DNA of 64,000 nucleotides, from IMG/VR virus record IMGVR_UViG_3300006752_000009. One strand, 5' to 3'. Numbering within the stretch: position 1 is the first letter of the stretch; the number at the start of each line of letters is the position of its first letter. Position numbers and translations under genes: made by a program. The notes under the pieces are model-generated. The model saw only the letters and a list, made by a program, of their open reading frames with translations. It ran no database searches and was not told the DNA's origin. The DNA is from a virus. Taxonomy: Duplodnaviria; Caudoviricetes. Below are positions 2,723-36,291 of this stretch, one piece after another.

Positions 2723-2743
2723 CTAGGCGATCTCTGACCAATC
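2723..2743 (-). repeat. 21-nt direct repeat of the nrdB 3' end (GGATTGGTCAGA[A/G]ATCGCCTA)
   Basis: Other copy at about 3906-3926; both genes end DWSEIA*. Confidence 0.9.
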
Positions 2744-3820
2744 CAAATCCCTAGCCTTAATCGAATCATATCCTCGCCTACTACCTAACTCCCAATCAAC
2801 ACTCGCTAACAATAACCTCTTAGCTGTACCCCTACCCAAAAATACGGTCTGCTTCTTAAGGTTGTTCCTCAAAGTGATGTTCACACTCTTAAAGAGATAA
2901 CCCTCTTTGAGCTTGTTAATGTAGTCTTCACGACACACTTCCTCTACATCACCCTCTAAGTTGATTAACTTCACAGGCTTACTAGACCAACTGCTCACTT
3001 GACCGTTAGCCTTAGCCTCCTTGACTCCAGATAACTTAGAGATCACATCATAGTTCACACGCTCTAAATCAAAGTGCGTTCCAAACTTGAACCCATGATC
3101 CAAAACAAGATGCTTCACCACATCATGTTGACCACAACTATATATCCCAATGTCTTCTCTATGAATGTTCACAACTCCCTTAGAGCAAAGCGACCAACCC
3201 AACCTAAAGTAATCAGATAACTCACCTCTAGGGATCTCAACCTCTACACCTGTACGCACCATCGCTATCGTATCTGGTTTGTTCTTGCTATGTAGCTTTG
3301 CTCTTTTCTTCGGACAGTTTGCAGATGCTTTGATCCTAGCCCTCACCTCTGGATCTTTTAGAGCCTTTTTGTGCGAATCATGCCATCTTTGGCGAGGTTC
3401 ACCCTCTCTTGAAGCTAAAACACGCTCCCGATAACTCTCATCTTCCCATAGTTCCTTACCTCTTTTACTCATCTCCATCTTCACGATAGGATTAGAGCAA
3501 TAGTGTTTCAAAGCGTTAGAGGATGAACCCATGCCCCCACTGTTCATGTTCAAACAAAGTGGGTCATGGTCAGAACCCCCGATATATTTCTCACCAACCA
3601 ACTCGGCTTCATAAGCGTAAGCGTCATCCTCGTTCTCAAAGACCCTAATGATTTCTTTTTCAAACTCATTAGGGTGAGCTTTCATTTTACGCAAGAGCAA
3701 GAGTCCAGAGCCTTGATACTTACTCCCATCGGGATCACGATCTGAGTAAGTTCCTTTACCCAAGTAATACTCGCCTGTCCTCTTGTTGAACTGACGATAT
3801 ACATAATAACCTTTTGCCAT
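2723..3820 (-). mobile_element. free-standing GIY-YIG (Seg-like) homing endonuclease
   Basis: N-terminal YYVY...YYLG, YQGSG, E..L and LCLNM motifs of the GIY-YIG fold, followed by a basic DNA-binding region; directly downstream of nrdB; start placed at MAKG (3820). Confidence 0.85.
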
Positions 3821-3904
3821 TTCAATGCCTTTCAAAGAAGTTATTGAAAAGCGTACCAAAACGACAAATGTTAGTCAAGAACTAAAGGTCATAAATACCT
3901 ATTT

Positions 3905-16122: not shown

Positions 16123-16539
16123 TTACTTAGCAGGGATTGAGTTTGGCAGATTAGTGATTGTTTCACTAATCCAATCATGACCACTATCTAACAAGTCTTC
16201 ACCCCAAAAGCTAGGGTCAGAGATTTTCACTGTAATGCAAATGCAAGATTCACATTCCGATGTAGTTACAAAATCTTCAATCATCTGACTGTGGGGCCAC
16301 TGATTGATAGAGGTTTTAAAATCTTCTACAGATCTTTTTAGGATCGCCCTGTTCATGTGCATGAAACAAAGGTTAATTTTGTCTTCTTCATACTCACGAT
16401 CATCTACCATGATGATAGCACGAGCATTACTTAATTTTGCTGTCTTTGCGGCAGACTTCGTTCTTCTTGAGGTGCTGTTTTCAAGTCGAGCAATACGATC
16501 TTCAAGATTTCTGATGGTTTCGTTTGCTGATCTTCTCAT
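16123..16539 (-). CDS. MRRSA-leader cassette protein (payload unknown)
   Basis: Begins MRRSANETIRNLEDRIARLE; conserved 5' module at 16540-16602. Confidence 0.8.
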   Translation of the reverse strand: MRRSANETIRNLEDRIARLENSTSRRTKSAAKTAKLSNARAIIMVDDREYEEDKINLCFMHMNRAILKRSVEDFKTSINQWPHSQMIEDFVTTSECESCICITVKISDPSFWGEDLLDSGHDWISETITNLPNSIPAK

Positions 16540-16602: not shown

Positions 16603-17253
16603 TTAAACACGCTCGTACTTGATGACCTCATCAACCAAACCAAGCTCAAGACACTTCTTAGGGTTCATCCAAAGATCACGCTTTAGAAGATCTTTGAGTT
16701 GCTTCTTCTTCATGTTGGTGTTCTTGAGGTAAATGGACTCCAACATTTCCATGAGCGAGTCCATAGACTCTTTCTCATCAGTTAGGTTCTCGTATGTTCC
16801 CCATACACCTGTGCTGATTTGGTGGATGAGCATGAAACTATGCTCGGTGATGAAGCGTTTAGTTCCGACACAAGACATGATAGTCGCCGCTGACGCCGCC
16901 GACCCCTCGACATAAGTGAAAACAGGGATGTCCGAGTCTAAGATATGGCTCGCCCCTGCAAGACCACTAAAGGCACATCCTCCACCACTATTGATATGAA
17001 GGTGGATCGCAGGAGCTTGAGAGAGTCCAAGATCAGTGACCATATTAATGATCTGTTGACCGATGGACTTGATCGCAATCCCCATCTCCATGACAGACTT
17101 CGGAGAGATGCCTTGATAGAGGTAGATGTGATTGTCGCTTACGGTAATCTCACCATAGAAATCTGCTTGTGCGTTTTTGCGTTGAACATGAGCTTCTTCG
17201 TCATCATAAACTCTACGCATAGTGGGTGGGTGGTTAAAGTATTTCATAATCAT
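16603..17253 (-). CDS. clpP: ClpP-like serine protease
   Basis: LHINSGGG, GSAASAAT (catalytic Ser), MLIHQ (His), RDLWM, GLVDEV; start placed at 17253 by ATGA overlap with the upstream stop. Confidence 0.88.
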   Translation of the reverse strand: MIMKYFNHPPTMRRVYDDEEAHVQRKNAQADFYGEITVSDNHIYLYQGISPKSVMEMGIAIKSIGQQIINMVTDLGLSQAPAIHLHINSGGGCAFSGLAGASHILDSDIPVFTYVEGSAASAATIMSCVGTKRFITEHSFMLIHQISTGVWGTYENLTDEKESMDSLMEMLESIYLKNTNMKKKQLKDLLKRDLWMNPKKCLELGLVDEVIKYERV

Positions 17254-17672
17254 GCCCTTTCTCGGATTATGTGAAATCCTTCTAGCCAAGCTAGAACAAG
17301 AGGTCTAAGAGATTGAGTGGCGAGTGGGGAAAAACACTCTGGCATTTTCCGATGTCCTAAGATACAGTGGTCTTTCTTATACGACAGACAATGGTCTTTT
17401 TCATCACAGTCTTTGGGTACATCAAGGAGCTTTAGACAGCCTCTAGGCTCTCTAAGGTTTTGGTTCATCAGAGGGGTTGTGAACCCTCTCATTGCTTGGT
17501 CGAGTATGTCATGTGAGACTTCGGGGATTAAACGCTCTACAGGTGTTCCTACAAGGTCAGAGAACGCACCCCAATTTGTACTCTCATAAGGAAGGATCTT
17601 AGCGATCTTAGGGTTATTCCAATGACGATCAGTAAGGGTCATAAAGATTAACCCATCTCTACGGTACATCAT
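17250..17672 (-). CDS. hypothetical Cys-containing protein
   Basis: Reads ATG ATG TAC on the minus strand from 17672; overlaps both neighbours' start/stop codons. Confidence 0.65.
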   Translation of the reverse strand: MMYRRDGLIFMTLTDRHWNNPKIAKILPYESTNWGAFSDLVGTPVERLIPEVSHDILDQAMRGFTTPLMNQNLREPRGCLKLLDVPKDCDEKDHCLSYKKDHCILGHRKMPECFSPLATQSLRPLVLAWLEGFHIIRERA

Positions 17673-18040: not shown

Positions 18041-18325
18041 TTAATGTTGTCTATGCAGACATCTCGCCCTAACCTCATTGAGCATAGATTCGATCTTATT
18101 AAACTTATCTAAAAATTCTTTATAGGGTCGAAGCACATCTTCATCACTGAGGTTATCGAGCATTTCAGCGGCATCATCAAAGATTCTTTTAAGATCACGA
18201 TTTTCACTTAGAAAGTCATGGTTTTCATACTTTTTTCTAAGGTCTACGAGCCTACCTAGATTGTCATCTAGGTTTTCTCTCACATCGTGAAACATCTTGG
18301 TTTTAGAGACTGCGTTTCTTACCAA
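18041..18325 (-). CDS. hypothetical protein
   Basis: 94-aa ORF overlapping the upstream stop. Confidence 0.5.
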   Translation of the reverse strand: MVRNAVSKTKMFHDVRENLDDNLGRLVDLRKKYENHDFLSENRDLKRIFDDAAEMLDNLSDEDVLRPYKEFLDKFNKIESMLNEVRARCLHRQH

Positions 18326-20049
18326 CTTTTTTTTTGATAAGAAGCTCTTCTACGACCACCACTCATAGCACCCTCAAGTTTACGGATGAGTTTCTGTAGA
18401 CCTGCAATGGCTTTACGAGTACGAACTTCAACAGGCTGACGACCTGCACGACCAGTTCCTTGAATACGATCAAGTGCGAGGCGAATGTCGTTCGCAGACT
18501 CTTGGGAAAGTTGATCTCGATTAGTGCCGAGTGAACGCTGTGTTGCCATGAGCTGTTGTACAGCTCGCTCATCAACGATACCGTTATCTTGGAATGAAGC
18601 AATCGCCGCACGAACAACAGAAACGGTATCTGTGATCATAGCTTGTGAGTAAGCAATGTCTTGGTTCTGCCACATTCCAGGATTTGAAGTAAGACCGATT
18701 GGATACGAGCCATAGAGAGGACCGCTCTTACGGTGTTCACCTCTCTGTGAATATGCAGAGACATAACCCTTCTTGAGCTTAGACTTGAGCTGTTTAACAA
18801 AGAAAGCCTGTGCTTCATAAGAGTCCATAAATGATTTATCGGCTCTACGACCCGAAGAACCAAGACGACCATAAAGGATTTCTACATCTGATCCGCTAAC
18901 GACCATCTCGTAGAATTTGCTTTTGTTCTCGGACTCACCGATGAGATAAAGCATACAAGAGGTAGCCTCTGCCATTGAGCGACCCTCATGATAAGCTGTG
19001 CTTGAGCGAACACCTGCGAGTTGTGGCTCACCTGCGGCTTCACGATTCATGCTTGCAGTGCGATTGAGGTTTGCCTCAAGACGAGCGATCCTCATCTCAA
19101 GGTTACGGATTACTTCACTAGCTGATCTTCTCATTTGAGATCCTTTCTTTAGAAGCCTTCTGACTTCATCTTTAGAGTAAGAGTTGTCGAGCTTACGCTC
19201 ATTACGATAGATGAGGTGACGCAAACGCTTACGCTCCTCATCATTGAGTGAATCAATGCCTCTACGCTGACCTTTATTGATAAGCATAAAGTCATCACGC
19301 TCAAGATAGGCATTGGATTTAAGGTCTGCAAGTAGCTTAGATGCTGGAGATGACTGACTAGCAATGATTTCTTCAACCACATTCATCTGTCTTTCAGAGA
19401 GCTGAATACGATCTTCAGCTTTAGACTTGAGTTGTGCCAAGAAACGATTACGAGGGTCGAGTTCAAGTGCCTTTTCAATACGGACAAGCTGATTACTTGT
19501 CTGATTACCAACCATTTGAGTTTGCATCAGTTTTTCGTCAAGCACTTCAATCTGTCTCTCGGAAAGCTCTCTACCACCCATAAACTGATCGTAGAGACTT
19601 CTGAAAAAACGATTAGTAGGTTGCATCGCAATCGCTTGGTTGAGCTTCGTTAAGATGTCTTGATCGGGATTCTCAATACGCTCTTCAGTTTCGATTAGGA
19701 TTTCCTCAACCCTGTAGTGAAGGGGATCTCCTTGTTGAAGCTCATTTAAGATGTCTTTCCACCAATCACTATTCGGATTAAGAGCAAGAACTGCTTGAAC
19801 ACGCTCAATGCTCTCTACATCTCTGAACTTACCTGGAAAGTCGATCTTGAGTTGGATGAGTCCATCACTGATGGACATATCTCCAAGACTCCTTAACAGA
19901 GACACAAGAACATCTGGTCCTTTTTTGTTGAGTTTAACTTCAAAATCGTCAAAGTTAATCATGGCATTGTCTCTACGAGACTCCATCTCAAGCATCTCTA
20001 GTGCTTCTTCTACTGTGGTATTGTAGAAATATATTTGATTGGCTTTCAT
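18319..20049 (-). CDS. fusion protein: three ~45-aa helical repeats + internal MRRSAS leader + WGR domain + C-terminal helical domain
   Basis: Internal MRRSASEVIRNLEMRIARLE at 19134; WGR-like segment NKSKFYEMVVSGSDVEILYGRLG...KLKKGY; start placed at 20049 after GAAGGAG. Confidence 0.75.
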   Translation of the reverse strand: MKANQIYFYNTTVEEALEMLEMESRRDNAMINFDDFEVKLNKKGPDVLVSLLRSLGDMSISDGLIQLKIDFPGKFRDVESIERVQAVLALNPNSDWWKDILNELQQGDPLHYRVEEILIETEERIENPDQDILTKLNQAIAMQPTNRFFRSLYDQFMGGRELSERQIEVLDEKLMQTQMVGNQTSNQLVRIEKALELDPRNRFLAQLKSKAEDRIQLSERQMNVVEEIIASQSSPASKLLADLKSNAYLERDDFMLINKGQRRGIDSLNDEERKRLRHLIYRNERKLDNSYSKDEVRRLLKKGSQMRRSASEVIRNLEMRIARLEANLNRTASMNREAAGEPQLAGVRSSTAYHEGRSMAEATSCMLYLIGESENKSKFYEMVVSGSDVEILYGRLGSSGRRADKSFMDSYEAQAFFVKQLKSKLKKGYVSAYSQRGEHRKSGPLYGSYPIGLTSNPGMWQNQDIAYSQAMITDTVSVVRAAIASFQDNGIVDERAVQQLMATQRSLGTNRDQLSQESANDIRLALDRIQGTGRAGRQPVEVRTRKAIAGLQKLIRKLEGAMSGGRRRASYQKKSW

Positions 20050-20114
20050 CACATCTCCTTCGGTTTGTTTCACAGCAAAGGAGGAGGTATAAATAAACTA
20101 TAAAAGGTAAAGAT

Positions 20115-20948: not shown

Positions 20949-21215
20949 ATGTCATTACCTAGAGAACGAAAAAGAGCTGACTATCGAGTCATTGCTCGCA
21001 TCTTGCAACTGAGTCATGGACAAGCAGATCCAAAAGACTCATTGCTTGAAAAGATTTCTAATGTATTTAATCGTAATGGTGGCTCTTGGGTATTATTCTT
21101 TGAAGGACACCCAAAACACAGCAAGCTACTTAAAGTAGTGATAAAAGCTGTCGTAAAACATAAGAAGGATCAACATGAGCGAAGAACTAGAAGCCAAATC
21201 AGTTGGGAAGATTAA
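20949..21215 (+). CDS. hypothetical protein
   Basis: 88-aa ORF with GGGGG RBS; class A-like box at 20905-20916. Confidence 0.6.
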   Translation: MSLPRERKRADYRVIARILQLSHGQADPKDSLLEKISNVFNRNGGSWVLFFEGHPKHSKLLKVVIKAVVKHKKDQHERRTRSQISWED

Positions 21216-22851
21216 ACCCCGATCAAAAGCGATCACTCGTAAGCTCAATCCTGCCGAGATGAAATCGAGGGTCAAAGTGGCGATGACCACAGGAGGCTCT
21301 ATGATGGGGTCGGGTGGGAACTTCTACTCACCAGAGTTATCTACTGACTTTCTTGAACTACCTCAAAGTCAAGACGAACAACGCAACTACTTTAGGTTCT
21401 TTTATCGCACTGACCCCTTCGTAGGACAGGCGATTGATCTACATACAGAGCTTCCCCTCTCTAAGATCAGATTAGGGCTACCTAAAGCTCGCAACCGAGA
21501 CATGGCTTATGAAGCACTTAGGTTCTGTGAAAAATGGGCGAAGCGAGTCGGACTACTTCACCGACTCATAGAAATCTTACATGAGTTCAACCTGCTCGGT
21601 GAGGTTTTTGTTTTCTGTGAGGACAATAATCCAGATGTGCCTCAAGAGGTGACACATAGTGGTCGGAATGTTCTTAAAGAAGATGGCGAAGCGTTTACTG
21701 AGTGGACTGAGTATGAGGACTCCCATGAACGAGCTTACAAGTGGCTCAAGAGGAACTATAAAGGGTGGACAGGTGTTCGTATCCTCCCTCCCGAACAAGT
21801 TCACATGGAGAGTTTTCCTTTCACTAGTGAGAAGATCATTCAACTTATTCCCGATAGTAAAACTCGTGATGTAGTTGAACGAGCTTCGGTTAATGATCCC
21901 TCTGCTCTTCGTATTGTAGACTCAATGCCAGGAGATGTTGTAGAAGCTATTCGAGATGGTCGCAACATTGACCTCAATACTGATCCCGATCAAGGATCAT
22001 TCGTTTATTATATGGCTCGTAAGAAATCACAATATGAACCTCGTGGACACTCTATGCTTGAGCGTTGTCTTCGTATCCTCGTTTATCGAGATAAATTAAG
22101 ACAAGCCCAAACTTCTATCGCTTCAAGACACATGACTCCTATCCGACTCGTATATGCAGAGGATATGGATGCGTCTGATGTTGAAGAGTTGAGAGATCAA
22201 GTGGATCTTGCACTACAAGATCCAGACTATTCTATCATCGCTAACTTCCAAGTCTCTTGGGAAGAGATGGGTGCTGACTCTCGTTTGCTTGAACTATCGG
22301 GCGAATATGATATGACAGACCGACAGATGTATGCAGGTCTAGGTGTTACAGAATCTCTGTTATCTGGTGAGTCTAGTTATAGTGGCGATAGGATCAACTT
22401 AGAAGTCATCAACACACGCTATATGCTTATGCGTGAGGTTCTTCAAGAGATGGTTGAAGAGAACATCTTGAAGCCAATGTGTAGACGAATGGGTTTCGTT
22501 GAAATAGATGAAGATGGTGATGAGGTTGTAGTACACCCAACCCTTAGCTTCACTCGACTTGGATTGCGTGATAATCAAGATACCTTTGACGCTCTCTTTA
22601 ACCTGTATCAGAAGGGTTCATTGGACATTGATGTGATCCTAGAACTCCTCAATGTAGATCCTATGACAACTAAGGCTAAACTTGAGCGTGATATGTGGAC
22701 ACTCAATGACTCTCAGTTTAACGAAGTTCTGAGAGGGGTCTATGGTGAAGCAGGTCGTATGTTAGCCGAGAACACAGAAGCGATTGAGATCATCGCTAAG
22801 AATCTTGGATTAAAGTACAACCCACCAGAAGATGACGGTGGTCGTTTCTAA
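21175..22851 (+). CDS. probable portal protein
   Basis: 558 aa; segments FYRTDP.VGQAIDLHTELPLS, LLHRL.EI.HE..LLGE.F and YE.RG.S.L.RC resemble large-phage portals (from memory). Confidence 0.65.
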   Translation: MSEELEAKSVGKIKPRSKAITRKLNPAEMKSRVKVAMTTGGSMMGSGGNFYSPELSTDFLELPQSQDEQRNYFRFFYRTDPFVGQAIDLHTELPLSKIRLGLPKARNRDMAYEALRFCEKWAKRVGLLHRLIEILHEFNLLGEVFVFCEDNNPDVPQEVTHSGRNVLKEDGEAFTEWTEYEDSHERAYKWLKRNYKGWTGVRILPPEQVHMESFPFTSEKIIQLIPDSKTRDVVERASVNDPSALRIVDSMPGDVVEAIRDGRNIDLNTDPDQGSFVYYMARKKSQYEPRGHSMLERCLRILVYRDKLRQAQTSIASRHMTPIRLVYAEDMDASDVEELRDQVDLALQDPDYSIIANFQVSWEEMGADSRLLELSGEYDMTDRQMYAGLGVTESLLSGESSYSGDRINLEVINTRYMLMREVLQEMVEENILKPMCRRMGFVEIDEDGDEVVVHPTLSFTRLGLRDNQDTFDALFNLYQKGSLDIDVILELLNVDPMTTKAKLERDMWTLNDSQFNEVLRGVYGEAGRMLAENTEAIEIIAKNLGLKYNPPEDDGGRF

Positions 22852-22911: not shown

Positions 22912-23205
22912 ATGAGAAGATCTGCTAGTGAAACTATTAGAAATCTTGAAGATCGTATCGCTCGCCTTGAAGGTAAGACAGCGAAAATCAACCTCAAATC
23001 CCTTGCCAAGCACATAAGTAAAAAAAGAAGCGATGGTACTGGTACTGTTGGCTTTGTGGAATATGACGCACGAAGCCAAACAGTAATTTTCCTCAATGGG
23101 GACTATGAAGATATAGTAGTACCTGTAGACAAGTTGTTAGCTCAACTTATCCGAGAGGAGATGGGTAATGACCTGTATGACTTAGAGGGCAACACTATCA
23201 GTTAA
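22912..23205 (+). CDS. MRRSAS-leader cassette protein (payload unknown)
   Basis: MRRSASETIRNLEDRIARLE; 5' module 22852-22911 starts immediately after the portal stop. Confidence 0.8.
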   Translation: MRRSASETIRNLEDRIARLEGKTAKINLKSLAKHISKKRSDGTGTVGFVEYDARSQTVIFLNGDYEDIVVPVDKLLAQLIREEMGNDLYDLEGNTIS

Positions 23206-24456: not shown

Positions 24457-24656
24457 AGAGTGTTCTCCTTTGGGAAGTTTTAGTATTGCTCCTCCACCAC
24501 CGAGTCAGAGGACTCAACTCCCATCTAAAGGTGCGTGGTGGTGTTAGGGTTCTTATGGGTAAAGAGTTCGATGAGGGCTAGGGTTAGAAGAATGTGTTTC
24601 AAGTTTCTCCTTTGGGAGTGAGTGGTTATACAATGTTATAGATAAGGGGTTACAAA

Positions 24657-24911
24657 CACCCCGACTCTCCTAAGAGAAGCCGAGGTGTCGGGCAAGTGAG
24701 CTGACCTCGCCAAGCATATCTGAGTCTGCGTAAAGCCCGTTTCTATAGGAAAGACGCAACATCTCACCTTATGTTGGCTCAAACCCCCCTTTTGAGATTG
24801 AACCTACGATGCGAGGTCAGAATCACCCACAACGACCACTACCCTTTCAATGGGTGGTTTACCTTTACAACAGCGTAAAGGCTTTGTTGGGCTAGTGGCA
24901 TCCCCCAACGA
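24657..24911 (-). ncRNA. stand-alone structured RNA candidate (~255 nt), family unknown
   Basis: No ORF; promoter-like TGTAACCCCTTAT...TATAAT at 24913-24936; 10-bp long-range helix 24701-24710/24811-24820; at least six local hairpins; terminator-like 3' hairpin at 24659-24685. Confidence 0.6.
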
Positions 24912-24984
24912 CATTATACAATAAATAAGGGGTTACAGTTGTAGTTTCTTTATCGCTCTCAATATAAAGAAAAAGGAGCTTACT

Positions 24985-26847
24985 ATGCAGAATATAACTA
25001 GTAGAATAAGACCACCAAGAGCAGTAGTCGAACAGATCGAAGAATACCTATTAAGCCAAGTCGGGGTATACGAAACCCTTAATCTAAATGTTAATGTTCC
25101 CCCACCTCCAAGAACTCGTGGTTATGTAGAGGACTTAGACTTGAGAGTGGAGATAATTCCTCCTCATGCGTCTGAAAAATATAATAGAGTTGAAGCTAAA
25201 TATGACTCTACGAACTCTGTTCTTTATGTGAACCTCCCCTACTTTGAAAAAAAATATGAGGGAAGGGAACTAGCAGAAGCTCTTTACAGAGTAGTCGCTC
25301 ACGAGCTAGTTCATGTATATCAAATCCTTTATACTAGATCACGAGATGGCGATCCGAGATCTGACTCTCCAACAGCAGGGCTTCCTGGACTTAGAGAGAG
25401 AACCCCACAATATAGACAGGAAACAGGTGAGATACTTGACCATCGTTTAGACGACAATGAGTTTTACCCACGCTTAGAGGACACCATCAATGCAATCAAC
25501 TTTGTAGCGAGAACAAGGCAAGATGAGATAGCGAGTATCATTTCTTATGTTGTAGGTGAGTCAAAACGACCAGCGTACCGTTCTAAGCACTTAAGAGAGC
25601 CTATGGCATGGCTTGAAGACTTAGGGAAGTACGCACCTAAAAAGTTCCTCAAAGCTGTGAGAAAGATCAAGAACGAGTTCCCCGAAACAGCAAAAATGCG
25701 TACTGCCGATTTCTTTAGGCAGGTTAGTCCTCCCGATGAGTTAAGTACCTTTAGTAATGGAACACCCACAGGTAAAGGAACAGACCTTAAAGACAAAGGT
25801 GAAGGCTCTCAAATGCCAAATGGAGATGGAGCTAGGAATATAGGTCGCCCTAGCCCCGACTCCCCTAACCTTAAATCAAGAAATCTTGATCGCTCTGAGT
25901 CTTATGGTCGTAAGCCTGCTGAGGGATTTGATGGAGGTTATGTGCATGATAGTGGTAGCGGTAGTGCTAGGGTTATCCCTTATGATAGTGGTTTTGCGAA
26001 CAACTCATCTCCTTTGAGAAAAGCGTCAAAGCGTGTTGCTCACAGATACTTAGATTCATTAAAAGCACCTTCGATGAAGACATCGGCAAGACCGATACGC
26101 ATTGATAAAGCTAAGATCAAAGAGATGACTAAGGATGCGATCAAAACCCTTGAGGACATAGTTAAGAAAACTAAGGAGGAAACCTTATCCAAAGCTATCA
26201 AACGCAAGACGAGAGACGGAACTATATTTCTAGGTAGCTACCTAGATTCTGGTTCCTCTATTGAGATTCAGATCATGGTCAAAGAAACGCACGAAAATGG
26301 GCAGTACATCTACAATCCACAAAGGGGTTTGCATGAGATCGAAATCTATCTTGCAGATAGAACCGTCAAAGAACTGACTCACCCTTATCTGTATAAAATG
26401 TCAATAAGACCAGCGATGGTTAAGCACATATACTCTATTCTCATACATGAGATTACTCATGCCGTTGAGCGAATCCGATACTTGCAGACTGACGAGGACT
26501 TGCTAGGCTTTGGTTTAAATCAAGGATCTAGGTTTGATAAGGCAAAGATCAAGACACGCAAAGACAAAGATAAGGTATTAAAGGCGTATTACAATGACCC
26601 TAGCGAGGTTAAGGCTTACCTCCAACAGATTGCTGATGAAGTAGAGGAATACCTTAACCAAAAGCATGGAGGGCTGTCTAAAGAATCCCTACAGTCTGGT
26701 TGGAGAGATTCTTTTGGTTATTACGGTTCTAAGACTTGGGATCAAGTTTCTAAATACCTCACCCCAAAGAACCAAAAGTATATCAAGAAAGCAGTGCTCT
26801 CACATCTCATAGAGACCATAGACTCAAAGGAATCAACCAATGGCTAA
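24985..26847 (+). CDS. polyprotein-like probable virion protein with two HExxH zincin-type domains
   Basis: HELVH at 25300 and HEITH at 26446; linkers KMRTAD, RKASKRVAHRYL, MKTSA; class A box at 24941. Confidence 0.7.
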   Translation: MQNITSRIRPPRAVVEQIEEYLLSQVGVYETLNLNVNVPPPPRTRGYVEDLDLRVEIIPPHASEKYNRVEAKYDSTNSVLYVNLPYFEKKYEGRELAEALYRVVAHELVHVYQILYTRSRDGDPRSDSPTAGLPGLRERTPQYRQETGEILDHRLDDNEFYPRLEDTINAINFVARTRQDEIASIISYVVGESKRPAYRSKHLREPMAWLEDLGKYAPKKFLKAVRKIKNEFPETAKMRTADFFRQVSPPDELSTFSNGTPTGKGTDLKDKGEGSQMPNGDGARNIGRPSPDSPNLKSRNLDRSESYGRKPAEGFDGGYVHDSGSGSARVIPYDSGFANNSSPLRKASKRVAHRYLDSLKAPSMKTSARPIRIDKAKIKEMTKDAIKTLEDIVKKTKEETLSKAIKRKTRDGTIFLGSYLDSGSSIEIQIMVKETHENGQYIYNPQRGLHEIEIYLADRTVKELTHPYLYKMSIRPAMVKHIYSILIHEITHAVERIRYLQTDEDLLGFGLNQGSRFDKAKIKTRKDKDKVLKAYYNDPSEVKAYLQQIADEVEEYLNQKHGGLSKESLQSGWRDSFGYYGSKTWDQVSKYLTPKNQKYIKKAVLSHLIETIDSKESTNG

Positions 26848-28801
26848 AAATGTACCTACCGATGAGAAGTTATGGACTGAGATACAATCTCTAGCTAAAG
26901 GTGAGTCTAGTAAGCCTGTTTCTAGGGGTAAAGAGTCTGTCAATCCTGTGAATGATGGGAAAGGGTTTGAAACTTTCCCATCGGCTTATGCTAACGGTTG
27001 GGCTTTGGCTCAGTACAAGCGACTAGGTGGTAAGTGGAAAAAGGAATCTAAAAAAGCAGGTCTGATAAGACCTCCAAAACATATTGTAGATAAAGTTTCA
27101 GAGATACTGACGGCAGGGTTTGCTTCTTATTGGGTTGGGAAGCAAAAGGAAATGGATAATAAACCGTATTTATCTATATCTCTTGAAAAGATCTCTAACT
27201 TTGAAAACCTTATCGAAGATTTAGATGAAGCGTATATGTCCGTAAGGATGAAACGAGCTACTTTTGATGAATTGGAAAGAGCTTTAAGAGCTTTGAGAGT
27301 ATCGACTCAAGAGCTTATAGATATGTTTAAAGGGCGAATACCTCCTACCCTTGAAAAGATGAGTCATATTTTAGAAAACATGAGTCCGATTAGTGTCTTT
27401 GAAGAACCTAAAAAATATAAAAAAGAATTTATGTTTTTAGGTAGGACATTCGGTTTAATTTCAGAGTTGAGATCTCTGAGACAAGATCCTGTTTCTTACA
27501 TCTCAGAGAAATCAAGGGCATTATATGAGGGTGAAGCTAATAAAGTTAAAAGGTTTGATAAATTCTTAGATCGACCTTCTCAATCGACATGGATTTTTCA
27601 AACAGAAGATTTAGGCACACTTCGGTTACAAGTAAGAGAATCTAAGGGTGCTAAGGGTTTAGCGTATTATCGTTATGATGAAATTGATGATCTACATACA
27701 ATAACCGTTAGGGTGTTTCCTAACTCCAATGACTTGAGTGGGGAAGATCTAGGTAAGATTAAAGATTATGTACGGCATGAGTTAGTTCATGCTATGCAAA
27801 AAAAAATGTCATTGGACTTCAATGTTGATCAAGCAGGTATTCCTTTCCAAAAGCGAGATATGACTTACTTGCAAGGACATAAATACAAAGAAAAAGACCT
27901 TAAAGCTCAATATGAAAGAGAGGGTCTTGACTCAGATTTGGTAAGTATCCATGCACTTGATGACATCGAGTTTTATACGAGACTTTTAGATGAAGTGGTG
28001 GAATTTCAGAGACTTAATGTGAGTGGTTCAGACCTTAATCAAGAGGTGCATGAGTGGGTGTCCAAAAGAAAATTTTTTGTAAGTTTAAAAAGGTTTAAGA
28101 AAAAGAATTGGAACAAGGCTGTTGGTATTTTCTTTGAAGCAGTCAGTTCTAATCGAAAGTATGCTCGTAAGTGGGACAAAGATCATTGTGAGTCTAAGAG
28201 TTGCGATGAGATGGGCTTCTCTGAAAAGGCTTCATGTCGCCCCTATAAGAACTGCTACGAGAAGTCAGCGTCCTCCAAAGTTAAACCCATGTACTTAGGT
28301 TCAGAAAGTGGAGCGATGGCTTACGATTTCTACTTTATGCGTGTGGAAAAGGATTACTATTACCACTACACATACAGAGATCGTGCCGAAGAAATAATAG
28401 AGGATGGTTATTTAAGACCCAATTTCTACAACGATCAACCAGGAGGACAAGGTGTTTTTGCCATCTCTGGATCTTATGGACAAGAGGTCACAGACCTTCA
28501 AGTCAGTGGTTCTAGGAAAAAACACATGGATAGGATAGTTGCCCTCAAGTTTAAGACTAAAACTGAGCCTAAGTATGGATACCCCGAAGAAATCATTTGG
28601 GATAAACCTGTGAAACTTATTCGACCAGAGATTGTTAGCTTTTCGGAAGCTGAGGCAGACATTAAGAGGAATGAGGACTTAGGAGAATACTTCAAGGTAT
28701 TTTACGACTTTAAGAAGGCTGTCGAGATTAAAAAAGAATATGGAACAGTGATCTCTAGGGTTGCTCACAGATACTTAAGGAATCTAAAAAATGAAACATA
28801 A
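26840..28801 (+). CDS. polyprotein-like probable virion protein: PSAYANGW module + LIRPPKH-zincin module + Cys motif + ART-like domain
   Basis: HELVH at 27776; YHYT...I.EDGYL.P...GVFAIS at ~28355-28720; linkers KKAG, EKSAS, SRVAHRYL. Confidence 0.7.
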   Translation: MAKNVPTDEKLWTEIQSLAKGESSKPVSRGKESVNPVNDGKGFETFPSAYANGWALAQYKRLGGKWKKESKKAGLIRPPKHIVDKVSEILTAGFASYWVGKQKEMDNKPYLSISLEKISNFENLIEDLDEAYMSVRMKRATFDELERALRALRVSTQELIDMFKGRIPPTLEKMSHILENMSPISVFEEPKKYKKEFMFLGRTFGLISELRSLRQDPVSYISEKSRALYEGEANKVKRFDKFLDRPSQSTWIFQTEDLGTLRLQVRESKGAKGLAYYRYDEIDDLHTITVRVFPNSNDLSGEDLGKIKDYVRHELVHAMQKKMSLDFNVDQAGIPFQKRDMTYLQGHKYKEKDLKAQYEREGLDSDLVSIHALDDIEFYTRLLDEVVEFQRLNVSGSDLNQEVHEWVSKRKFFVSLKRFKKKNWNKAVGIFFEAVSSNRKYARKWDKDHCESKSCDEMGFSEKASCRPYKNCYEKSASSKVKPMYLGSESGAMAYDFYFMRVEKDYYYHYTYRDRAEEIIEDGYLRPNFYNDQPGGQGVFAISGSYGQEVTDLQVSGSRKKHMDRIVALKFKTKTEPKYGYPEEIIWDKPVKLIRPEIVSFSEAEADIKRNEDLGEYFKVFYDFKKAVEIKKEYGTVISRVAHRYLRNLKNET

Positions 28802-31118
28802 GTCTTTAATCGAAAAGGTGGCCCAACGCTATTTAGAGTCTGTAAAGCGTGATGATCCTAAAAAAAAGAACACTGGTAAGGGTGGGTTAGGTACTTGGTT
28901 TGCAGGGCATGGTGGTGGAGATCCCGATGATCGTGCTACATGGGGCGATTGGATTGCTATAACACCTGTAAAACACACTATCAAAAAAGAAGATGGAGAG
29001 GACAAGACCTATGAACCAGGAGACATTGTTGGCCCATGTGCCATATCTAGTGAAAAAGAGTGGTCAGATGTTACAAGTGGGGGAAAAAAACCCCTCAAGT
29101 GTATGCCACGAGAAAAAGCATGGAAAATGCCCAAGAAAGACCGAGCCGAGATTGCCAAAAAGAAAAGGCGGGAAGAAGCGAAGCATCGTGGGAAGAAGCC
29201 TGTTAATACTCCGACTTTCTCTGATGAAGCTAAAGAGATCACAGAGAAAAAGAAGAAGACTTCTGGCTTAATCAGACCTCCAAAACACATTGTAGATCAA
29301 GTAGCAGAAATAGGTAAAGGATTACTCGCCCAATACTGGATTAAAAGGGAAAAAGAGGATAGCTCCAAAGGTGGACTAGATCCAGAGTCTGTTGAGGGTC
29401 TTGAGTGGATACTTGAGGATCTTGATTATCTGCCACTTGGGGTCAAAAGAGGTGAACATGATGAGGAAGAAGTGATCTTCCAAGTCAGAAATGTACAGAG
29501 AGCTTTTTCCGAGATAGATGAACAGATGGAATCTGCAAACCTCAAATACTCAGACTTCCACAAAATCAAGACAAAGATAGATCAGCTCGATGCACAGAGC
29601 ATCTTTAATGACCCAAGAGGGAATAAGGCTCTCATCGGGTCTATCTCGGATAGGGCATCTGATTTACTTCGTGAGTTTAAAAAATGGTCAACAGGGAGTA
29701 AACAATACATCCCCACCTTAATGCGTAATGACTACCTTGAAGCTGTCGAACGACTGTCAAAGTACAAGGTCAAGGACAGTGGTAGATACTATGTTGAAGA
29801 TGATGAGCTAGGCTTAGTGGCAGTACATCTTCAAGAGTCCTCACATGGTGCGGCTCAATACTATTGGGATGGTATTCACCACATCATATTTAATGTTCTC
29901 AAGAATATGACTGAACTCCCTCTCAAGTATTTAACAGATCGAGAAACGATAGCAGGACATGAGCTAGTTCATGCAATGCAACAACATTACGCTAATAAAG
30001 CGAACATAGAGGAAGCAGGATTACCAAGTCAGAAAAGAGATGAACAGTTTCGTTTTGACATGAAGGAGAAACAGAAAGAGCTGAGAGTCCAATATGCTAG
30101 AGAGGGGATGGATTTTGAGCTGATCTCTATCCATGCGTTAGATGACATAGAGTTTTACTCTCGCCTACTCGATGAGGTTACTGAGTTCAAAAGACGCAAT
30201 AAGGGTCTTAATGATGAAATACATAAATGGGTAAAAAAACGACCTTTTTTTGTAAGTCTTAAGAGATTTAAGCGTAGGAATTGGAAAAAAGCAGTAGGCA
30301 TCTTTGTTGATGCTGTGCAACTTAAAGCTAAGTCAGCTAGTCGGGTAGCTCATCTCTATTTGCAAGCGGCTGCTCAACCTGCACAAGACCTAGCAGGTGT
30401 CAAAACATGGGTCGATAAAACCCGACAAGACCAAATCAATAACGATACCTCTACCCCAAATAAATCGAGAGAAGATTATGAAGATGGTAAACCACAAAGA
30501 GATCGAGTTCTACCTTTACCTAGTGGACACCCCGAAGGTCGAGATGAGCAAAGAGTTGGACCAGGAGTCATTAACTCACCTCCCGACTCTAGTGGTCAAG
30601 GTGGAGCGAACCGTCCAAAGAAAGACCCAAGTGCATTAAACGATCACCCCAATGGGAAAGCCCTCCATGAGCGTCCTAGATCAAGTGGTATTCCTGGAGA
30701 TCAGTATGGAAACCCTTATATAGATCAATCCACATCTACAGGACTCAAGCGTAGAGTCATGGGTAGCTCAGAGGAGTTTGAGTTTTGGGATGTAGATGGA
30801 GATGATCTCGTCAAAGTCGCCTTGTTTCGATATAACCATCGACCACCGAGAGGGAACAAGAGACAGCGTTCTCAAAAAGGTCAAGCGAAACGCAAATCTC
30901 AAAAGTACAAGCGTAAGTATCGGGTTAAATACCGTAGAAATCTTTTAAAGCAGAAGAGACGCTACAAGCGTAAAAAACACAACCCAACTTACAAGAAGTA
31001 CAAGAAGAACTACGCTAAGAACCCAGAGAGGTACAAGCGTAGACCAGGTGGTGTGTCCACAGTTAAACAGAAAAACAAACGAACAGAAAATCGTAGGAAG
31101 AAGGCAGATCATGAGTGA
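28791..31118 (+). CDS. polyprotein-like probable virion protein: N-terminal module + LIRPPKH-zincin module + disordered region + K/R-rich tail
   Basis: HELVH at 29958; IHALDDIEFY.RLLDEV shared with the upstream gene; linkers EKVAQRYL, KKTSG, KSASRVAHLYL. Confidence 0.7.
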   Translation: MKHKSLIEKVAQRYLESVKRDDPKKKNTGKGGLGTWFAGHGGGDPDDRATWGDWIAITPVKHTIKKEDGEDKTYEPGDIVGPCAISSEKEWSDVTSGGKKPLKCMPREKAWKMPKKDRAEIAKKKRREEAKHRGKKPVNTPTFSDEAKEITEKKKKTSGLIRPPKHIVDQVAEIGKGLLAQYWIKREKEDSSKGGLDPESVEGLEWILEDLDYLPLGVKRGEHDEEEVIFQVRNVQRAFSEIDEQMESANLKYSDFHKIKTKIDQLDAQSIFNDPRGNKALIGSISDRASDLLREFKKWSTGSKQYIPTLMRNDYLEAVERLSKYKVKDSGRYYVEDDELGLVAVHLQESSHGAAQYYWDGIHHIIFNVLKNMTELPLKYLTDRETIAGHELVHAMQQHYANKANIEEAGLPSQKRDEQFRFDMKEKQKELRVQYAREGMDFELISIHALDDIEFYSRLLDEVTEFKRRNKGLNDEIHKWVKKRPFFVSLKRFKRRNWKKAVGIFVDAVQLKAKSASRVAHLYLQAAAQPAQDLAGVKTWVDKTRQDQINNDTSTPNKSREDYEDGKPQRDRVLPLPSGHPEGRDEQRVGPGVINSPPDSSGQGGANRPKKDPSALNDHPNGKALHERPRSSGIPGDQYGNPYIDQSTSTGLKRRVMGSSEEFEFWDVDGDDLVKVALFRYNHRPPRGNKRQRSQKGQAKRKSQKYKRKYRVKYRRNLLKQKRRYKRKKHNPTYKKYKKNYAKNPERYKRRPGGVSTVKQKNKRTENRRKKADHE

Positions 31119-33231: not shown

Positions 33232-34338
33232 ATGAGAAGATCAGCAAGTTTTGGTGACATCCTCGTTGATGTCATCGAAAAATATGAAGATGAGCTAATG
33301 GCTCTTGATTCAGAGTATATTGATGGTGGTGATGACTACGCTAACCGAAAACAAGATGCTCTTTTTGGAGGGGACCTAGATACAGCTCTTTTGTTCACTC
33401 GTGATCGCAGAGTCAAAGAAGTGTTGCTAACTATTCAATCAGATCTTGATCGTATCGAGAAAGGGGAGATTTCTATTAGAAGATCAGCATCCGATACCAT
33501 CAGAAATCTTGAGGCTCGTGTAGCCCGACTCGAATATAATCGAGGACAAGCCTATATCAACCTCGATCTTGTGGGAGAAAACTTTCGCACAGGAGTTAAT
33601 CTTGCTCACTATATTGTTGACGAAGGCTTTGATCATTTGATGGAGGGTAAGCTATTCATTAAGGATGGATTGAATCTTGTGGATTATCATATTGGTAGCA
33701 ACCTTGAAAGGTTCGAGACTCTGTTGAAACAAGAGATGGTAATGACTCTTGAAGATGTTTCAATCGGGAATCATAGAAGCACGAGTAATGCTGATCCAGA
33801 AGAACTTGAAGATCTGAACCTTCCCGATGTCCAAGACCTCAATCGTTCAAGAGTGAGTGTGGAGCGAGTAATTTCTCCAACATCGGGTACTCCTGGATAC
33901 CTTGTTAAAGTTAATGGTGGGTCGGGTATTAAAGTCGCTCGCTTTGAGAGGTCGGCAGGGACTATGGACTTTTTTAAGTCTTATAATCGCAGGGCAGGGG
34001 AGATCGTCAAAGAGATCAATGGTATCTTACCTATTGGTATCTTTGCGTCTAAGCCAGAGAAGGTAAGTAAGAAGTCTAGGCAAGCTAAGGCGATTTTCAG
34101 AGGTTATATTGGAACAGCCAACTCTCTTTCAGTTGATTTTGACTCAGACCGACATTATAGGATTGTGTTTCTTTCTGATGACGATTATCGGTCGCCTTTA
34201 GAATACGGACTCGATGACTTATATACTCAGAGTTCTTTTACTTTTTACCTTGATGGTAAAGCTGTGGCGACTGCAAAAAATGGGGAGATGGATCACACCT
34301 TTTTAAGTAAGGTTAAAAGAGCGTATAGATCTCAATAG
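33232..34338 (+). CDS. MRRSAS-leader cassette protein, tandem fusion of at least two cassettes
   Basis: Starts MRRSASF; internal IRRSASDTIRNLEARVARLE at 33475; later ERSAG and NRRAG motifs. Confidence 0.8.
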   Translation: MRRSASFGDILVDVIEKYEDELMALDSEYIDGGDDYANRKQDALFGGDLDTALLFTRDRRVKEVLLTIQSDLDRIEKGEISIRRSASDTIRNLEARVARLEYNRGQAYINLDLVGENFRTGVNLAHYIVDEGFDHLMEGKLFIKDGLNLVDYHIGSNLERFETLLKQEMVMTLEDVSIGNHRSTSNADPEELEDLNLPDVQDLNRSRVSVERVISPTSGTPGYLVKVNGGSGIKVARFERSAGTMDFFKSYNRRAGEIVKEINGILPIGIFASKPEKVSKKSRQAKAIFRGYIGTANSLSVDFDSDRHYRIVFLSDDDYRSPLEYGLDDLYTQSSFTFYLDGKAVATAKNGEMDHTFLSKVKRAYRSQ

Positions 34339-34397: not shown

Positions 34398-34715
34398 ATG
34401 AGAAGATCAGCATCAGAAACAATTCGTAATCTTGAATCAAGAATCGCTAAACTTGAGAAATCATCTAGCAGAACAGATCGCTTAGAGGAAAAGCAAGATC
34501 ACGCAAAGAAACTAGAACAAATCTTGAAGCCTGTTTTCGGTTCAAGTCTGCGAAGCGTGTACTTTGACTACAACAATAGTGATATGTTCATCGCAGAAGT
34601 AAGTGCAAGTTTTTGGGAGGAAACAGGTCTTAACAAAAATGGATTAAAGACACTTGCAAAGTACACAGAAGGATTTACCCTTGACGGAAACAGAGTTTAC
34701 TTAAACATTGATTGA
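34398..34715 (+). CDS. MRRSAS-leader cassette protein
   Basis: MRRSASETIRNLESRIAKLE; 5' module 34336-34397. Confidence 0.8.
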   Translation: MRRSASETIRNLESRIAKLEKSSSRTDRLEEKQDHAKKLEQILKPVFGSSLRSVYFDYNNSDMFIAEVSASFWEETGLNKNGLKTLAKYTEGFTLDGNRVYLNID

Positions 34716-34805: not shown

Positions 34806-35264
34806 ATGAGAAGATCAGCATCAGAAATTATCAGTGAACTTGAGACTCGGATTGCCCGTCTTGAAAGAAAAGCCTCACCCTACCGTCCAGACGGATATGA
34901 CGCATATGAAACTGGAGAGTCAGAGCGACCTCTTGACATCTTTGAGTCTCGGAGTCGAGATGATGAGAGATGGAGAGATTCTGTCTCAACAGGAGAGAGG
35001 GCTGACAAGCAGATTAAGTCTATCCTTAATAGTTCTCGTATTAAGTACACTAATAAATATGGTAGATTTATTTTTGCTGACAAAAGGACTTTGGTTAAAG
35101 CTCTTGAGGCTTTAGGTGAGAGTCGTTCAGACGCTCGGATTCTTGGTGAGAGAGGTACTGATCTTCAAGGAGACTTAATAAATCTGTTTGGTAAGTCTTA
35201 TGAGGTTGCTGTTCCCGATTTGGAAGATGAGCAGTATGAGTACTACTTAGTAGCATCTTACTAA
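34806..35264 (+). CDS. MRRSAS-leader cassette protein
   Basis: MRRSASEIISELETRIARLE; 5' module 34745-34805. Confidence 0.8.
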   Translation: MRRSASEIISELETRIARLERKASPYRPDGYDAYETGESERPLDIFESRSRDDERWRDSVSTGERADKQIKSILNSSRIKYTNKYGRFIFADKRTLVKALEALGESRSDARILGERGTDLQGDLINLFGKSYEVAVPDLEDEQYEYYLVASY

Positions 35265-36223
35265 GAAAAGAAGCCTTTAGGGTTGGAGGCGATTTTTGCG
35301 ATCAAGTCGAGATCATAACACCTAATCGCTTCCATCATTAGGCGACATTCAAACCACAGATCCCCATCAACAAGGGGCATGAACAGGTCATGGATGTTGT
35401 CTACACCTAACATAACATCGACCCCTCCCTCGATAAGCTCCATGACAGGGGCTATTGAGTTATGGATCGGTGCAAGTATATCAGAATGTTGTTTCATACT
35501 GATTGCCGCACTTGGGCAAACGACTACCCCGATCTCTGCTTCTTGTAGTTTAGAAATCACACGCTGACGATCTTCTTTTTGCTGACACGCAAGAGAGATC
35601 GCATGAACGAGCCTAACCCGACCCTCAAGACCATGTTCAAAGGTCTTATCTGCAACCATCTCAGACTCACGCTCTGAAGGGGTGTTGTTTTGCCCTACAT
35701 GAACATCAACTGGCTTGTTCATATCTTTGGCTAGGTTAAAGATAAAGTCCATGTGTGCGAGAGGATCTTCATCTCTGTCGGGGAGTCCACCGATCACATC
35801 TGCCATCTCACAGGCTTGTATAAACATTTTTTGAGCTTCGGGTTCAAGGACACCTTCAAGTGGTTGAACAGCAAGTTGGAGGTCAAACCCTTTCTTTGCG
35901 TATTCTCTTTTAAGATTGACAGCGACTTGCATAGGTAGGAGTCCAACGATTTGGTCAGCATCAATAAATGTACGACACTTAGAGACACCTTGATAGATCA
36001 GATGTTCAATACACCGAGCCATTCGAGAGTGGAGTGTGTATTCGGTGTATTCTTCTTTGAGCTTACGATAAAGTTTCCATTTTTCTTGGAGGCTCGACTG
36101 AGAGAGTTTTAGACCTTCTTCGCTGATTAGATATGCCTTGTCAAAGTGTGCGTGGTGGCAAGCAAACCCACCTAGTTCATCTACTTTGTCCAAAAAAAAA
36201 CTCTCAATGTGCCAATAGTTCAT
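35261..36223 (-). CDS. cytosine-deaminase-like metal-dependent amidohydrolase
   Basis: HAHFDKA (HxH), VDVHVGQ, HAISL, LGVDNIHD motifs of CodA-type enzymes; substrate not determinable. Confidence 0.8.
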   Translation of the reverse strand: MNYWHIESFFLDKVDELGGFACHHAHFDKAYLISEEGLKLSQSSLQEKWKLYRKLKEEYTEYTLHSRMARCIEHLIYQGVSKCRTFIDADQIVGLLPMQVAVNLKREYAKKGFDLQLAVQPLEGVLEPEAQKMFIQACEMADVIGGLPDRDEDPLAHMDFIFNLAKDMNKPVDVHVGQNNTPSERESEMVADKTFEHGLEGRVRLVHAISLACQQKEDRQRVISKLQEAEIGVVVCPSAAISMKQHSDILAPIHNSIAPVMELIEGGVDVMLGVDNIHDLFMPLVDGDLWFECRLMMEAIRCYDLDLIAKIASNPKGFFS

Positions 36224-36291
36224 GTGCAGACTCCTTTTGTTTTCTTTTTATACCCCGACATTTAATAGATATAAAAATAAAGGAGTTCACC

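Follow-up and report, generated by a model that had tools for sequence, protein, structure and literature searches.

Introduction

Polyvalent proteins are the closest described counterparts of the proteins analyzed here. They join zincin-like modules, often more than one, to ADP-ribosyltransferase (ART), GNAT and other effectors, their architectures vary among relatives, and delivery with the DNA has been proposed for them (Iyer, Burroughs, Anand, de Souza, Aravind, 2017; PMC5512222). Of their hub domains, zincin-like peptidases are the most frequent; these often recur, interspersed along the polypeptide, and have been proposed to process it (PMC5512222). In the present study, we analyzed a stretch of 64,000 nucleotides (hereafter, the window) from the IMG/VR virus record IMGVR_UViG_3300006752_000009 (Caudoviricetes), which is part of an uncultured huge phage. 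Our subject is three adjacent genes, here called A, B and C, whose proteins occur on a 347,814-bp contig (~348 kb). An original prediction, made from the DNA alone, had described these genes as polyprotein-like and segmented by short basic linkers, at which a phage head protease would cut to release several small effectors from each precursor.

In phage T4, the capsid targeting sequence (CTS) is a short portable peptide found on the unrelated proteins IPI-III and Alt, which brings about their loading into the prohead core and which gp21 removes; it is strictly N-terminal and is cut after L/I-x-E by a protease of the assemblin fold (PMC9026906). The phiKZ-like giant phages possess abundant paralogous internal head proteins (SPN3US gp53/gp54; PMC10052503, PMC5694885), and SPN3US gp245 cleaves head proteins at multiple sites, at AXE (PMC10052503). 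The internal head proteins of these giant phages are cut at several sites that bear one short motif. Encapsulins use short contiguous peptides to load ferritin-like and peroxide-handling enzymes into an HK97-fold shell.

Here, we report that A, B and C are polyvalent proteins built of portable cassettes, that these cassettes have been exchanged at their junctions, and that the junction motifs are deeply conserved. As in the known polyvalent proteins, each polypeptide has at least two functionally diverse globular domains, hub domains are present, and architectures vary from relative to relative, as seen in shuffled homologues and in a 408-aa cassette. The mechanism that we judge most likely, with about an even chance of being correct, is that the proteins are loaded into the head and that their modules are at least partly separated by proteolysis.

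Results

The Modules of A, B and C Meet and Are Exchanged at Short Motifs

The three open reading frames (ORFs) are as originally described (Table 1). A begins with a leader, MQNITSR, followed by a zincin-like module (A1, aa 8-236; HELVH at aa 106), KMRTAD, a conserved low-complexity module (D1, aa 241-344), RKAS-KRVAHRYL, MKTSA and a second zincin-like module (A2, aa 369-620; HEITH at aa 488). B comprises a small viral domain (N1, aa 1-70), KKAG, a zincin-like module (aa 75-442; HELVH at aa 313) with a four-helix-bundle insert, a Cys4 knuckle (aa 443-473), EKSAS, a putative ART-fold domain (aa 479-638) and SRVAHRYL. In C, an EKVAQRYL tag (aa 8-15) precedes a small viral domain (N2, aa 16-154), KKTSG, a zincin-like module (aa 160-513; HELVH at aa 390), KSAS-RVAHLYL and a conserved low-complexity module (D2, aa 525-775), which terminates in a very basic, protamine-like K/R tail. 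N1 is weakly DUF5872-like via a homologue (24 bits, below the cut-off), and N2 is DUF5872-like through language-model features only (0.88). D1 and D2 look disordered, yet they are 65-92% identical across dozens of homologues. The original prediction spoke of small effectors, but most modules are not of this kind, as four are zincin-like and two are the low-complexity segments; the HExxH module in each of A, B and C had been overlooked.

The nine linker strings named in the original prediction, i.e., KMRTAD, RKASKRVAHRYL and MKTSA in A, KKAG, EKSAS and SRVAHRYL in B, and EKVAQRYL, KKTSG and KSASRVAHLYL in C, do lie at module borders. By BLASTP, approximately 200 homologues were compared with A, B and C, and alignment ends were counted only where the homologue ran on for more than 15 residues. 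Of the 738 internal homology ends, 302 (41%) were located within six residues of the nine strings, which make up 8.4% of the sequence. This five-fold enrichment bears out the description of the genes as polyprotein-like mosaics bounded by the named motifs. Individual sites had 21-67 ends, compared with 3-9 expected (for MKTSA, 11 and 2.9), with the exception of the SRVAHRYL of B, which shows no excess, in line with its place at the protein end. A further border, absent from the original list, lies at approximately B 426-448, where the zincin-like module ends before the Cys-rich knuckle, and it also has many end-points. As had been noted, LIRPPKHIVD comes directly after a joint in both B (KKAG) and C (KKTSG). 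Across all six frames of the window, the motif [KR][VI]Ax[RL]Y[LIM] is found four times, always in A, B or C, whereas 0.07 (from composition) to 0.16 (from triplet shuffles) copies are expected; [KR]SAS is found eight times window-wide, compared with 0.6 expected.

Among 104 close homologues, the same modules are reordered and are accompanied by PAP2, Fe/Mn superoxide dismutase (SOD), GNAT, PARP, ART-PolyVal (PF18760, 37.6 bits, above the cut-off), DUF5661 and the Dps-like DUF5856 domains, in keeping with the likeness to polyvalent proteins that had been proposed. The logos of the joints read [RK]-x-A-G-L-I-R-P-P and K-K-A-S-A-S-R-V-A-x-R-Y-L. A syntenic locus, L003, encodes a C orthologue of 91% identity (BLASTP) and a B orthologue of 254 aa, which is made up of N1, SYPLRKAS, the ART-fold domain and a RIVHRYL tail. 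Missing from L003 is a 408-residue in-frame cassette of the window's B, KKAG-LIRPP...NCYEKSAS, whose bounds are exactly the joints. In homologues, NCYEKSAS is instead followed by RVAHRYL, and in three proteins (P0006, P0013 and P0014) the ART domain of B and the N2 of C are joined via a single RVAxRYL. A2 homologues lack the RVAHRYL motif.

Stand-alone zincin genes (P0009 and P0026) open with MRRSASEIIRSLESRVARLEGKNAG-LIKPP, and the genome's head-tag candidate therefore occupies the place of the upstream modules in B and C. Other stand-alone versions start with MDKRSG-LIRPP or MRRSADFYRDV, so that the Met residues within K-MRTAD and S-MKTSA correspond to the starts of separate genes; that of K-MRTAD is the start position of stand-alone homologues (MRRSADFY..., MKKIADFY...).

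The N-terminus of distant members, at 25-30% identity, has the form (M...)RVAxRYL-x2-4-AG-(L/I)(L/F)xAPPxMV. In 99 distant representatives, RVAxxY was present no more than 22 residues upstream of 18 of the 46 G-hh-x-PP sites, a 23-fold enrichment over a background of 1.7%, and 31 of the 46 sites were inside the first 40 residues. The same N-terminal edge is found in 33 IMG/VR loci, and in tandem arrays, e.g., P0204, an RVAxRYL-AG element separates the units, with a shortened copy at the end. The two motif classes of the original prediction, RVAxRYL and AG-(L/I)xxPP, are thus the halves of one ancestral zincin N-terminal leader, RVAxRYL-x2-4-AG-(L/I)(L/F)xPP.

It might be argued that such motifs have no function at the protein level, being relics of gene fusion, i.e., old starts of the type M-[KR]-[KR]-x-[AS]-[SG] that were favoured for initiation, combined with recombination joints that mark where cassettes can be exchanged in frame. 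Indeed, the Met residues at K-MRTAD, S-MKTSA and Q-MRRSAS coincide with the starts of stand-alone homologues, insertion and deletion of cassettes are located at the joints, and two RVAHRYL sites have 18 identical nucleotides. Apart from these 18 nucleotides, however, the codons differ among the window's four RVAxRYL sites, and selection therefore acts on the peptide. Furthermore, Met is absent from KKAG and KKTSG, the contiguous conservation of R-V-A-x-R-Y-L is unconnected with initiation, and the motif is kept at 25-30% identity with the 23-fold enrichment given above. We thus regard an explanation by fusion relics as very improbable.

The Zincin-Like Modules Form a Putative New Family

The zincin-like modules of B (aa 73-442) and C (aa 158-516) are paralogous (38% identity, E 1e-64), and A1 and A2 match members of the same superfamily with BLAST E-values of 1e-7 to 1e-9. 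An exhaustive profile search yielded 119 clusters (50% identity) in this family. In an alignment of 61 members, the invariant residues are H313, E314, H317, Q320, G333, E377 and F378 (B numbering), giving the pattern HExxHxxQ ... H-x-L-D-D-x-E-F-Y, with A2-type modules having their own invariant set (H, E, H ... Y, N, E). HExxH and a downstream Glu ligand, the features of gluzincin-type zincins, are conserved family-wide. None of the 61 members reached a Pfam cut-off, including that of MPTase-PolyVal; below the cut-offs, A matched SprT-like with an E-value of 0.016, and four of the 61 members gave matches at E >= 0.012.

An AlphaFold2 model of B66-450 had a predicted local distance difference test (pLDDT) score of 92.1 and a predicted template modelling score (pTM) of 0.83. 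In this model, the first ten residues (KESKKAGLIR) have a mean pLDDT of 60 and the next ten a mean of 97; a helical bundle (model residues 45-151) precedes a beta-sheet and the HExxH helix. The nearest named models in the Atlas were SprT-like (0.50), ImmA/IrrE (0.45) and YgjP (0.26-0.28), with template modelling (TM) scores by target, while the VIA-align rows for the zincin model were occupied by the four-helix insert. Foldseek searches of the PDB with the models of the B zincin module and ART-like domain gave no match at E <= 0.001, and PDB-sequence profile searches with both returned only coiled-coil or chance rows. Like the minimal zincins SprT/Wss1, YgjP (WLM-like) and ImmA/IrrE (M78), the modules are predicted to have an HExxH helix after a small beta-sheet and a third-ligand Glu on a later helix. 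Features that set the phage family apart from these are an invariant Q, located three residues beyond HExxH, the H-x-L-D-D-x-E-F-Y helix and the AG-LIRPP element at the N-terminus, to which B and C add the four-helix-bundle insert; there is no significant sequence match to the minimal zincins (best Pfam E 0.012-0.016). Since none of the 61 members reached a Pfam cut-off and Foldseek found no significant match in the PDB, the modules are best called an undescribed zincin-like family, as judged from sequence and model.

The presence of peptidase-like modules next to the joints raises the possibility of a polyprotein that processes itself, with the zincins recognizing RVAxRYL and/or cutting between AG and LIRPP, either in cis or in trans and at a time before or after ejection. 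In each of A, B and C, at least one module has intact catalytic motifs. The RVAxRYL...AG-hhxPP element tracks the zincin family across deep divergence, at the N-terminal edge of the module, and divides the tandem arrays of the P0204 type. A long and specific motif at each joint would resemble the sites in viral polyproteins, and autoproteolysis was proposed for polyvalent MPTase domains (Iyer et al., 2017; PMC5512222). Nevertheless, four paralogous copies exceed the needs of a processing enzyme, and the same joints occur in small, MRRSAS-tagged genes that are zincin-free. Self-processing seems to us distinctly improbable.

The C-Terminal Domain of B Has a Predicted ART Fold

On the basis of its model, B479-638 is most likely an ART-fold domain, although the model is mediocre (pLDDT 62). 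With VIA, 66 of 48,161 chains were matched at Z >= 2, and the top 50 were nearly all ARTs; the matches included TreTu (Z 5.5), KptA (5.0), DarT (4.3), and the pertussis and diphtheria toxins (3.9). The Atlas neighbours were DUF952, DarT and DUF3990 (TM 0.43-0.51). Homologues of the domain conserve HYT, AISGS and PEE (H, S, EE). There was no sequence-profile match to ART, and hhalign gave a probability of 0.2% for the C-terminal profile of B against the ART-PolyVal region of P0099.

Loading and Separation as a Proposed Explanation of the Junction Motifs

The RVAxRYL-type motif was found at 71 sites in the homologue set, of which 8 were N-terminal, 15 C-terminal and 48 internal. It flanks unrelated modules, i.e., N2, D2, zincin, ART and PAP2-containing proteins, and behaves as a portable address tag at least as much as a cut site.

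From this architecture we infer packaging, reading of a tag, cleavage and an acting protease as follows. The cassettes are joined by two elements, both conserved and flexible, namely a basic/small joint, [KR]-x-[AS]-[SG], and the contiguous (S-A-S)-R-V-A-x-R-Y-L. A, B, C and the Dps-like proteins would be loaded into the prohead, as are the internal proteins of T4 and the ejection proteins of phiKZ and SPN3US, with RVAxRYL serving as an address element that is recognized by a common partner. At the joints, a protease would separate at least some of the modules, such that fused and stand-alone versions give rise to equivalent products. The cargo travelling with the DNA would include the zincins, the ART-fold enzyme, the protamine-like tail and the Dps-like protein, as well as SOD, PAP2 and GNAT in relatives. 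In the models, pLDDT is low in KESKKAG and in the RVAHRYL tail, beside well-ordered domains, consistent with flexibility of the joints. The portal gene nearby, an arrangement conserved in other contigs, the basic tails and the ClpP-family head protease (see below) provide a head-related context.

Several observations weigh against this explanation. First, [KR]xAG-hhxPP is retained where the leader has just 4-6 residues (MKYAG-LMKPPP, MDKRSG-LIRPP), which suits a domain-edge or N-cap motif equally well as a cut site. Second, RVAxRYL is conserved across seven contiguous residues, beyond the usual needs of prohead proteases, and it is often found at the extreme C-terminus, where cutting would free nothing useful. 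Third, the internal Met is kept at K-MRTAD and S-MKTSA, as in simple relics of gene fusion. Fourth, the motif enrichment that was expected in A, B and C held for the longer motifs, which are non-random, but not for [KR]xA[SG], which is at background within these genes (1, 2 and 1 copies, compared with 0.8, 0.8 and 1.3 expected) and modestly enriched window-wide (31 compared with 19.8 expected). Finally, within the window, no major capsid or scaffold protein was identified that could serve as a reference substrate.

Some of these points are readily accommodated if RVAxRYL and the joints are tags without cutting, i.e., docking peptides or flexible tethers of proteins that stay full length, either in the head or in the cell, the internal tags having arisen through in-frame fusion of tagged cassettes. 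A binding peptide would tolerate the observed range of terminal and internal positions better than a cut site, and seven contiguous conserved residues are typical of a docking motif. In the model of B, the SRVAHRYL tail is a free helix of low confidence (pLDDT below 50). The persistence of [KR]xAG before hhxPP behind the shortest leaders likewise favours a tag. There are also precedents, as the polyvalent N4 vRNAP, which has a zincin domain, is packaged uncut (PMC5512222) and 42 SPN3US head proteins are uncleaved (PMC10052503). What docking alone does not explain is the coexistence of stand-alone and fused modules in near-identical phages, or the presence of the [KR]x[AS][SG] joint on both sides of helices. 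We see tags without cutting as a possible, but on balance unlikely, alternative to loading with separation.

A, B and C Belong to a Putative Operon Near the Portal Gene

Consecutive genes overlap by 8 nt (A/B), 11 nt (B/C) and 8 nt (C and the fourth gene), and A, B, C and the Dps-like gene look like a single operon with translational coupling, located near the portal gene and preceded by a promoter-like motif. Programmed frameshifting at the B/C overlap was rejected, as a slippery sequence is absent and the overlap is of the ordinary ATG/stop coupling type. The 13-mer ATAAGGGGTTACA of the promoter-like motif has nine copies in the window, compared with 1.2 expected. Upstream of gene A is a 530-bp non-coding stretch (24457-24984), in which two TTATACAAT..ATAAGGGGTTACA copies (24642 and 24925) flank a G+C-rich segment. 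This segment folds better than shuffled sequences (z -2.85; 0 of 200 shuffles were equally stable), and an Rfam search with the 530-bp region gave no match.

Table 1. Positions in the window of genes A, B and C, their junctions and associated features.
Feature	Position	Strand	Remarks
ClpP-family head maturation protease	16603..17289	-	phrog_94, E 2.6e-43; PF00574, 91 bits
Portal gene	21175..22851	+	phrog_16240, E 8e-32
Promoter-like motif TATACAAT..ATAAGGGGTTACA	24915..24937	+	~50 nt upstream of gene A
Gene A, 620 aa	24985..26847	+	ORF confirmed
Junction KMRTAD, A aa 237-242	25693..25710	+	21 break-points, 3.0 expected
Junction RKAS-KRVAHRYL-DSLKAPS-MKTSA, A aa 345-368	26017..26088	+	42 and 11 break-points, 4.0 and 2.9 expected
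Gene B, 653 aa	26840..28801	+	ORF confirmed
Junction KKAG, B aa 71-74, directly before LIRPPKHIVD	27050..27061	+	67 break-points, 8.8 expected
Junction EKSAS, B aa 474-478	28259..28273	+	36 break-points, 9.4 expected
C-terminal tag SRVAHRYL, B aa 639-646	28754..28777	+	5 break-points, 11 expected
Gene C, 775 aa	28791..31118	+	ORF confirmed
Junction KKTSG, C aa 155-159, before LIRPPKHIVD	29253..29267	+	47 break-points, 6.0 expected
Junction KSAS-RVAHLYL, C aa 514-524	30330..30362	+	53 break-points, 8.1 expected
Fourth operon gene, 349 aa	31111..32160	+	Protamine-like basic N-terminal region and Dps/ferritin-like DUF5856 domain
MRRSAS cassette gene	16123-16539	-	
MRRSAS cassette gene	22912-23205	+	
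MRRSAS cassette gene	33232-34338	+	
MRRSAS cassette gene	34398-34715	+	
MRRSAS cassette gene	34806-35264	+	

In homologues, the DUF5856 domain of the fourth gene is fused to the same zincin modules. The same toolkit is present in another order in L004 (321,080 bp), where a 629-aa protein, P0207 (5425-7314), links a zincin module via a degenerate RVATRII to a D2 basic tail; here, a Dps-like gene comes after P0207 and a PAP2 gene after the B-like gene.

The portal gene lies upstream of the operon, at a distance of 2.1 kb. Its product is 71% identical to that of a 485-kb metagenomic phage, LR745208.1, with Tunturiibacter phage Tunturi_5 and Bacillus phage G as distant kin. In LR745208.1, the nearest GenBank phage by portal, the zincin profile had no significant match (best E 0.0098, 13 bits). 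Zincin polyvalent genes also lie beside the portal gene in L003, as well as in four related viral contigs (L019, L020, L022 and L025). In the latter four, it immediately precedes the gene for a 3,032-aa polyvalent protein with four HExxH and four RVAxRY-like motifs (~2844-11942 in L019), and their portals match that of the window with E-values of 1e-123 to 1e-177. A blastn search of 50,697 phage records with the 6.1-kb region gave no match, and the sole tblastn match of B consisted of 65 residues of N1 in Synechococcus phage S-BM3.

The ClpP-like gene, to which the original prediction had drawn attention, was identified as that of a ClpP-family head protease (Table 1), and is a candidate for a processing enzyme acting in trans; the embedded zincins are an alternative candidate. 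If the proteins are both loaded and cut, the two are nearly equally plausible as agents.

The window further encodes a ribonucleotide reductase and a helicase. Two adjacent giant ORFs on the plus strand, 36133-43227 (2,364 aa) and 43286-50245 (2,319 aa), are without family assignment; in the first, R[VI]A occurs at five sites, compared with 0.66 expected. Homing-endonuclease-like genes are present at 2723-3859(-), adjoining the ribonucleotide reductase small-subunit gene, and at 56464-57804(-) (phrog_314, phrog_3339).

An MRRSAS Leader Is Shared by Other Genes of the Window

Outside the operon, a shared cassette is made up of a promoter-like box, TAAGTGATCTC (nine copies, compared with 3.3 expected), a conserved, GGAG-containing 5' untranslated region and the leader MRRSAS-ETIRNLEDRIARLE, behind which a [KR]xA[SG] joint is usually found (Table 1). 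For three of the cassette ORFs, the true start is the Met of MRRSAS and not an upstream GTG or TTG. The MRRSAS...ARLE leader is carried by at least five genes of the window, and in the relatives P0009 and P0026 the MRRSAS leader is fused straight to a zincin module. Internal copies are found at aa 316 of the 584-aa product of 18319-20073(-), and near aa 84 of the 33232-34338 product. In the former, NRTAS and a WGR domain (PF05406, E 7e-13) come after an internal MRRSASEVIRNLEMRIARLE tag. The latter, of 368 aa, matches no family, contains two RRSAS elements and has four [KR]xA[SG] sites where 0.47 are expected; it is possibly a scaffold-like or multiply processed head protein. The other strings quoted in the original prediction, i.e., MRRSAS, MKKQAG, RRVAS, RVASMKVAS and NRTAS, were all present. 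A basophilic-kinase site (R-x-x-S) was considered for RRSAS and RKAS, but was rejected because the KKAG and KKTSG-L joints do not have the acceptor pattern.

Discussion

The proteins of this locus differ from described polyvalent proteins in several respects. Their zincins match none of Pfam's models, including MPTase-PolyVal, Dps-like and SOD domains as well as protamine-like tails are among their cargo, and their modules are connected by a conserved peptide grammar (RVAxRYL, [KR]xA[SG]), whereas 'linker' is not a word in the main text of PMC5512222. As far as the sequences indicate, the new features of this locus would be the conserved junction grammar and the undescribed zincin family.

Like the T4 CTS, RVAxRYL and MRRSAS...ARLE are short leaders common to otherwise unrelated proteins. 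There are also parallels in the cargo, in that T4 Alt is an ADP-ribosyltransferase, while B has a putative ART-fold domain, and the set of internal proteins varies among related phages. In contrast to the CTS, however, RVAxRYL also occurs at internal and C-terminal positions and is unrelated in sequence, and the head protease of the window has the ClpP fold. With regard to phiKZ-like giant phages, cutting of their head proteins takes off N-terminal propeptides and does not part enzymatic modules from one another, the protease resembles T4 gp21, and the head proteins have no sequence relationship to A, B and C. Encapsulins differ in that they are not phages and that the consensus of their loading peptides is unrelated to RVAxRYL.

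If loading and separation both take place, the locus may represent a true polyprotein strategy for the head cargo of huge double-stranded DNA phages, a proposal that we make tentatively and regard as rather unlikely in its full form. In such a strategy, SAS-RVAxRYL...[KR]xAG-LIRPP would be a loading label combined with a cut site (between AG and LIRPP), possibly for the embedded zincins, and cassettes such as the Dps-like, SOD and protamine-like modules could be fused, split or swapped between phages without loss of function, in a manner reminiscent of the short peptides by which encapsulins take up ferritin-like cargo.

A loading and processing code, if true, would make it possible to predict from sequence, by a rule, the proteins that uncultured huge phages bear in the capsid and bring into the host; such rules have so far come from mass spectrometry and exist only for T4-like and phiKZ-like phages. 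It would also offer a portable tag for packaging foreign proteins, and would explain the rapid reshuffling of cargo sets between near-identical phages. The network of polyvalent proteins would, in turn, gain an undescribed zincin family of the size reported above. Finally, modules of the Dps-like, SOD and protamine-like types among the cargo may point to a role in protecting or condensing the very long genome inside the head.

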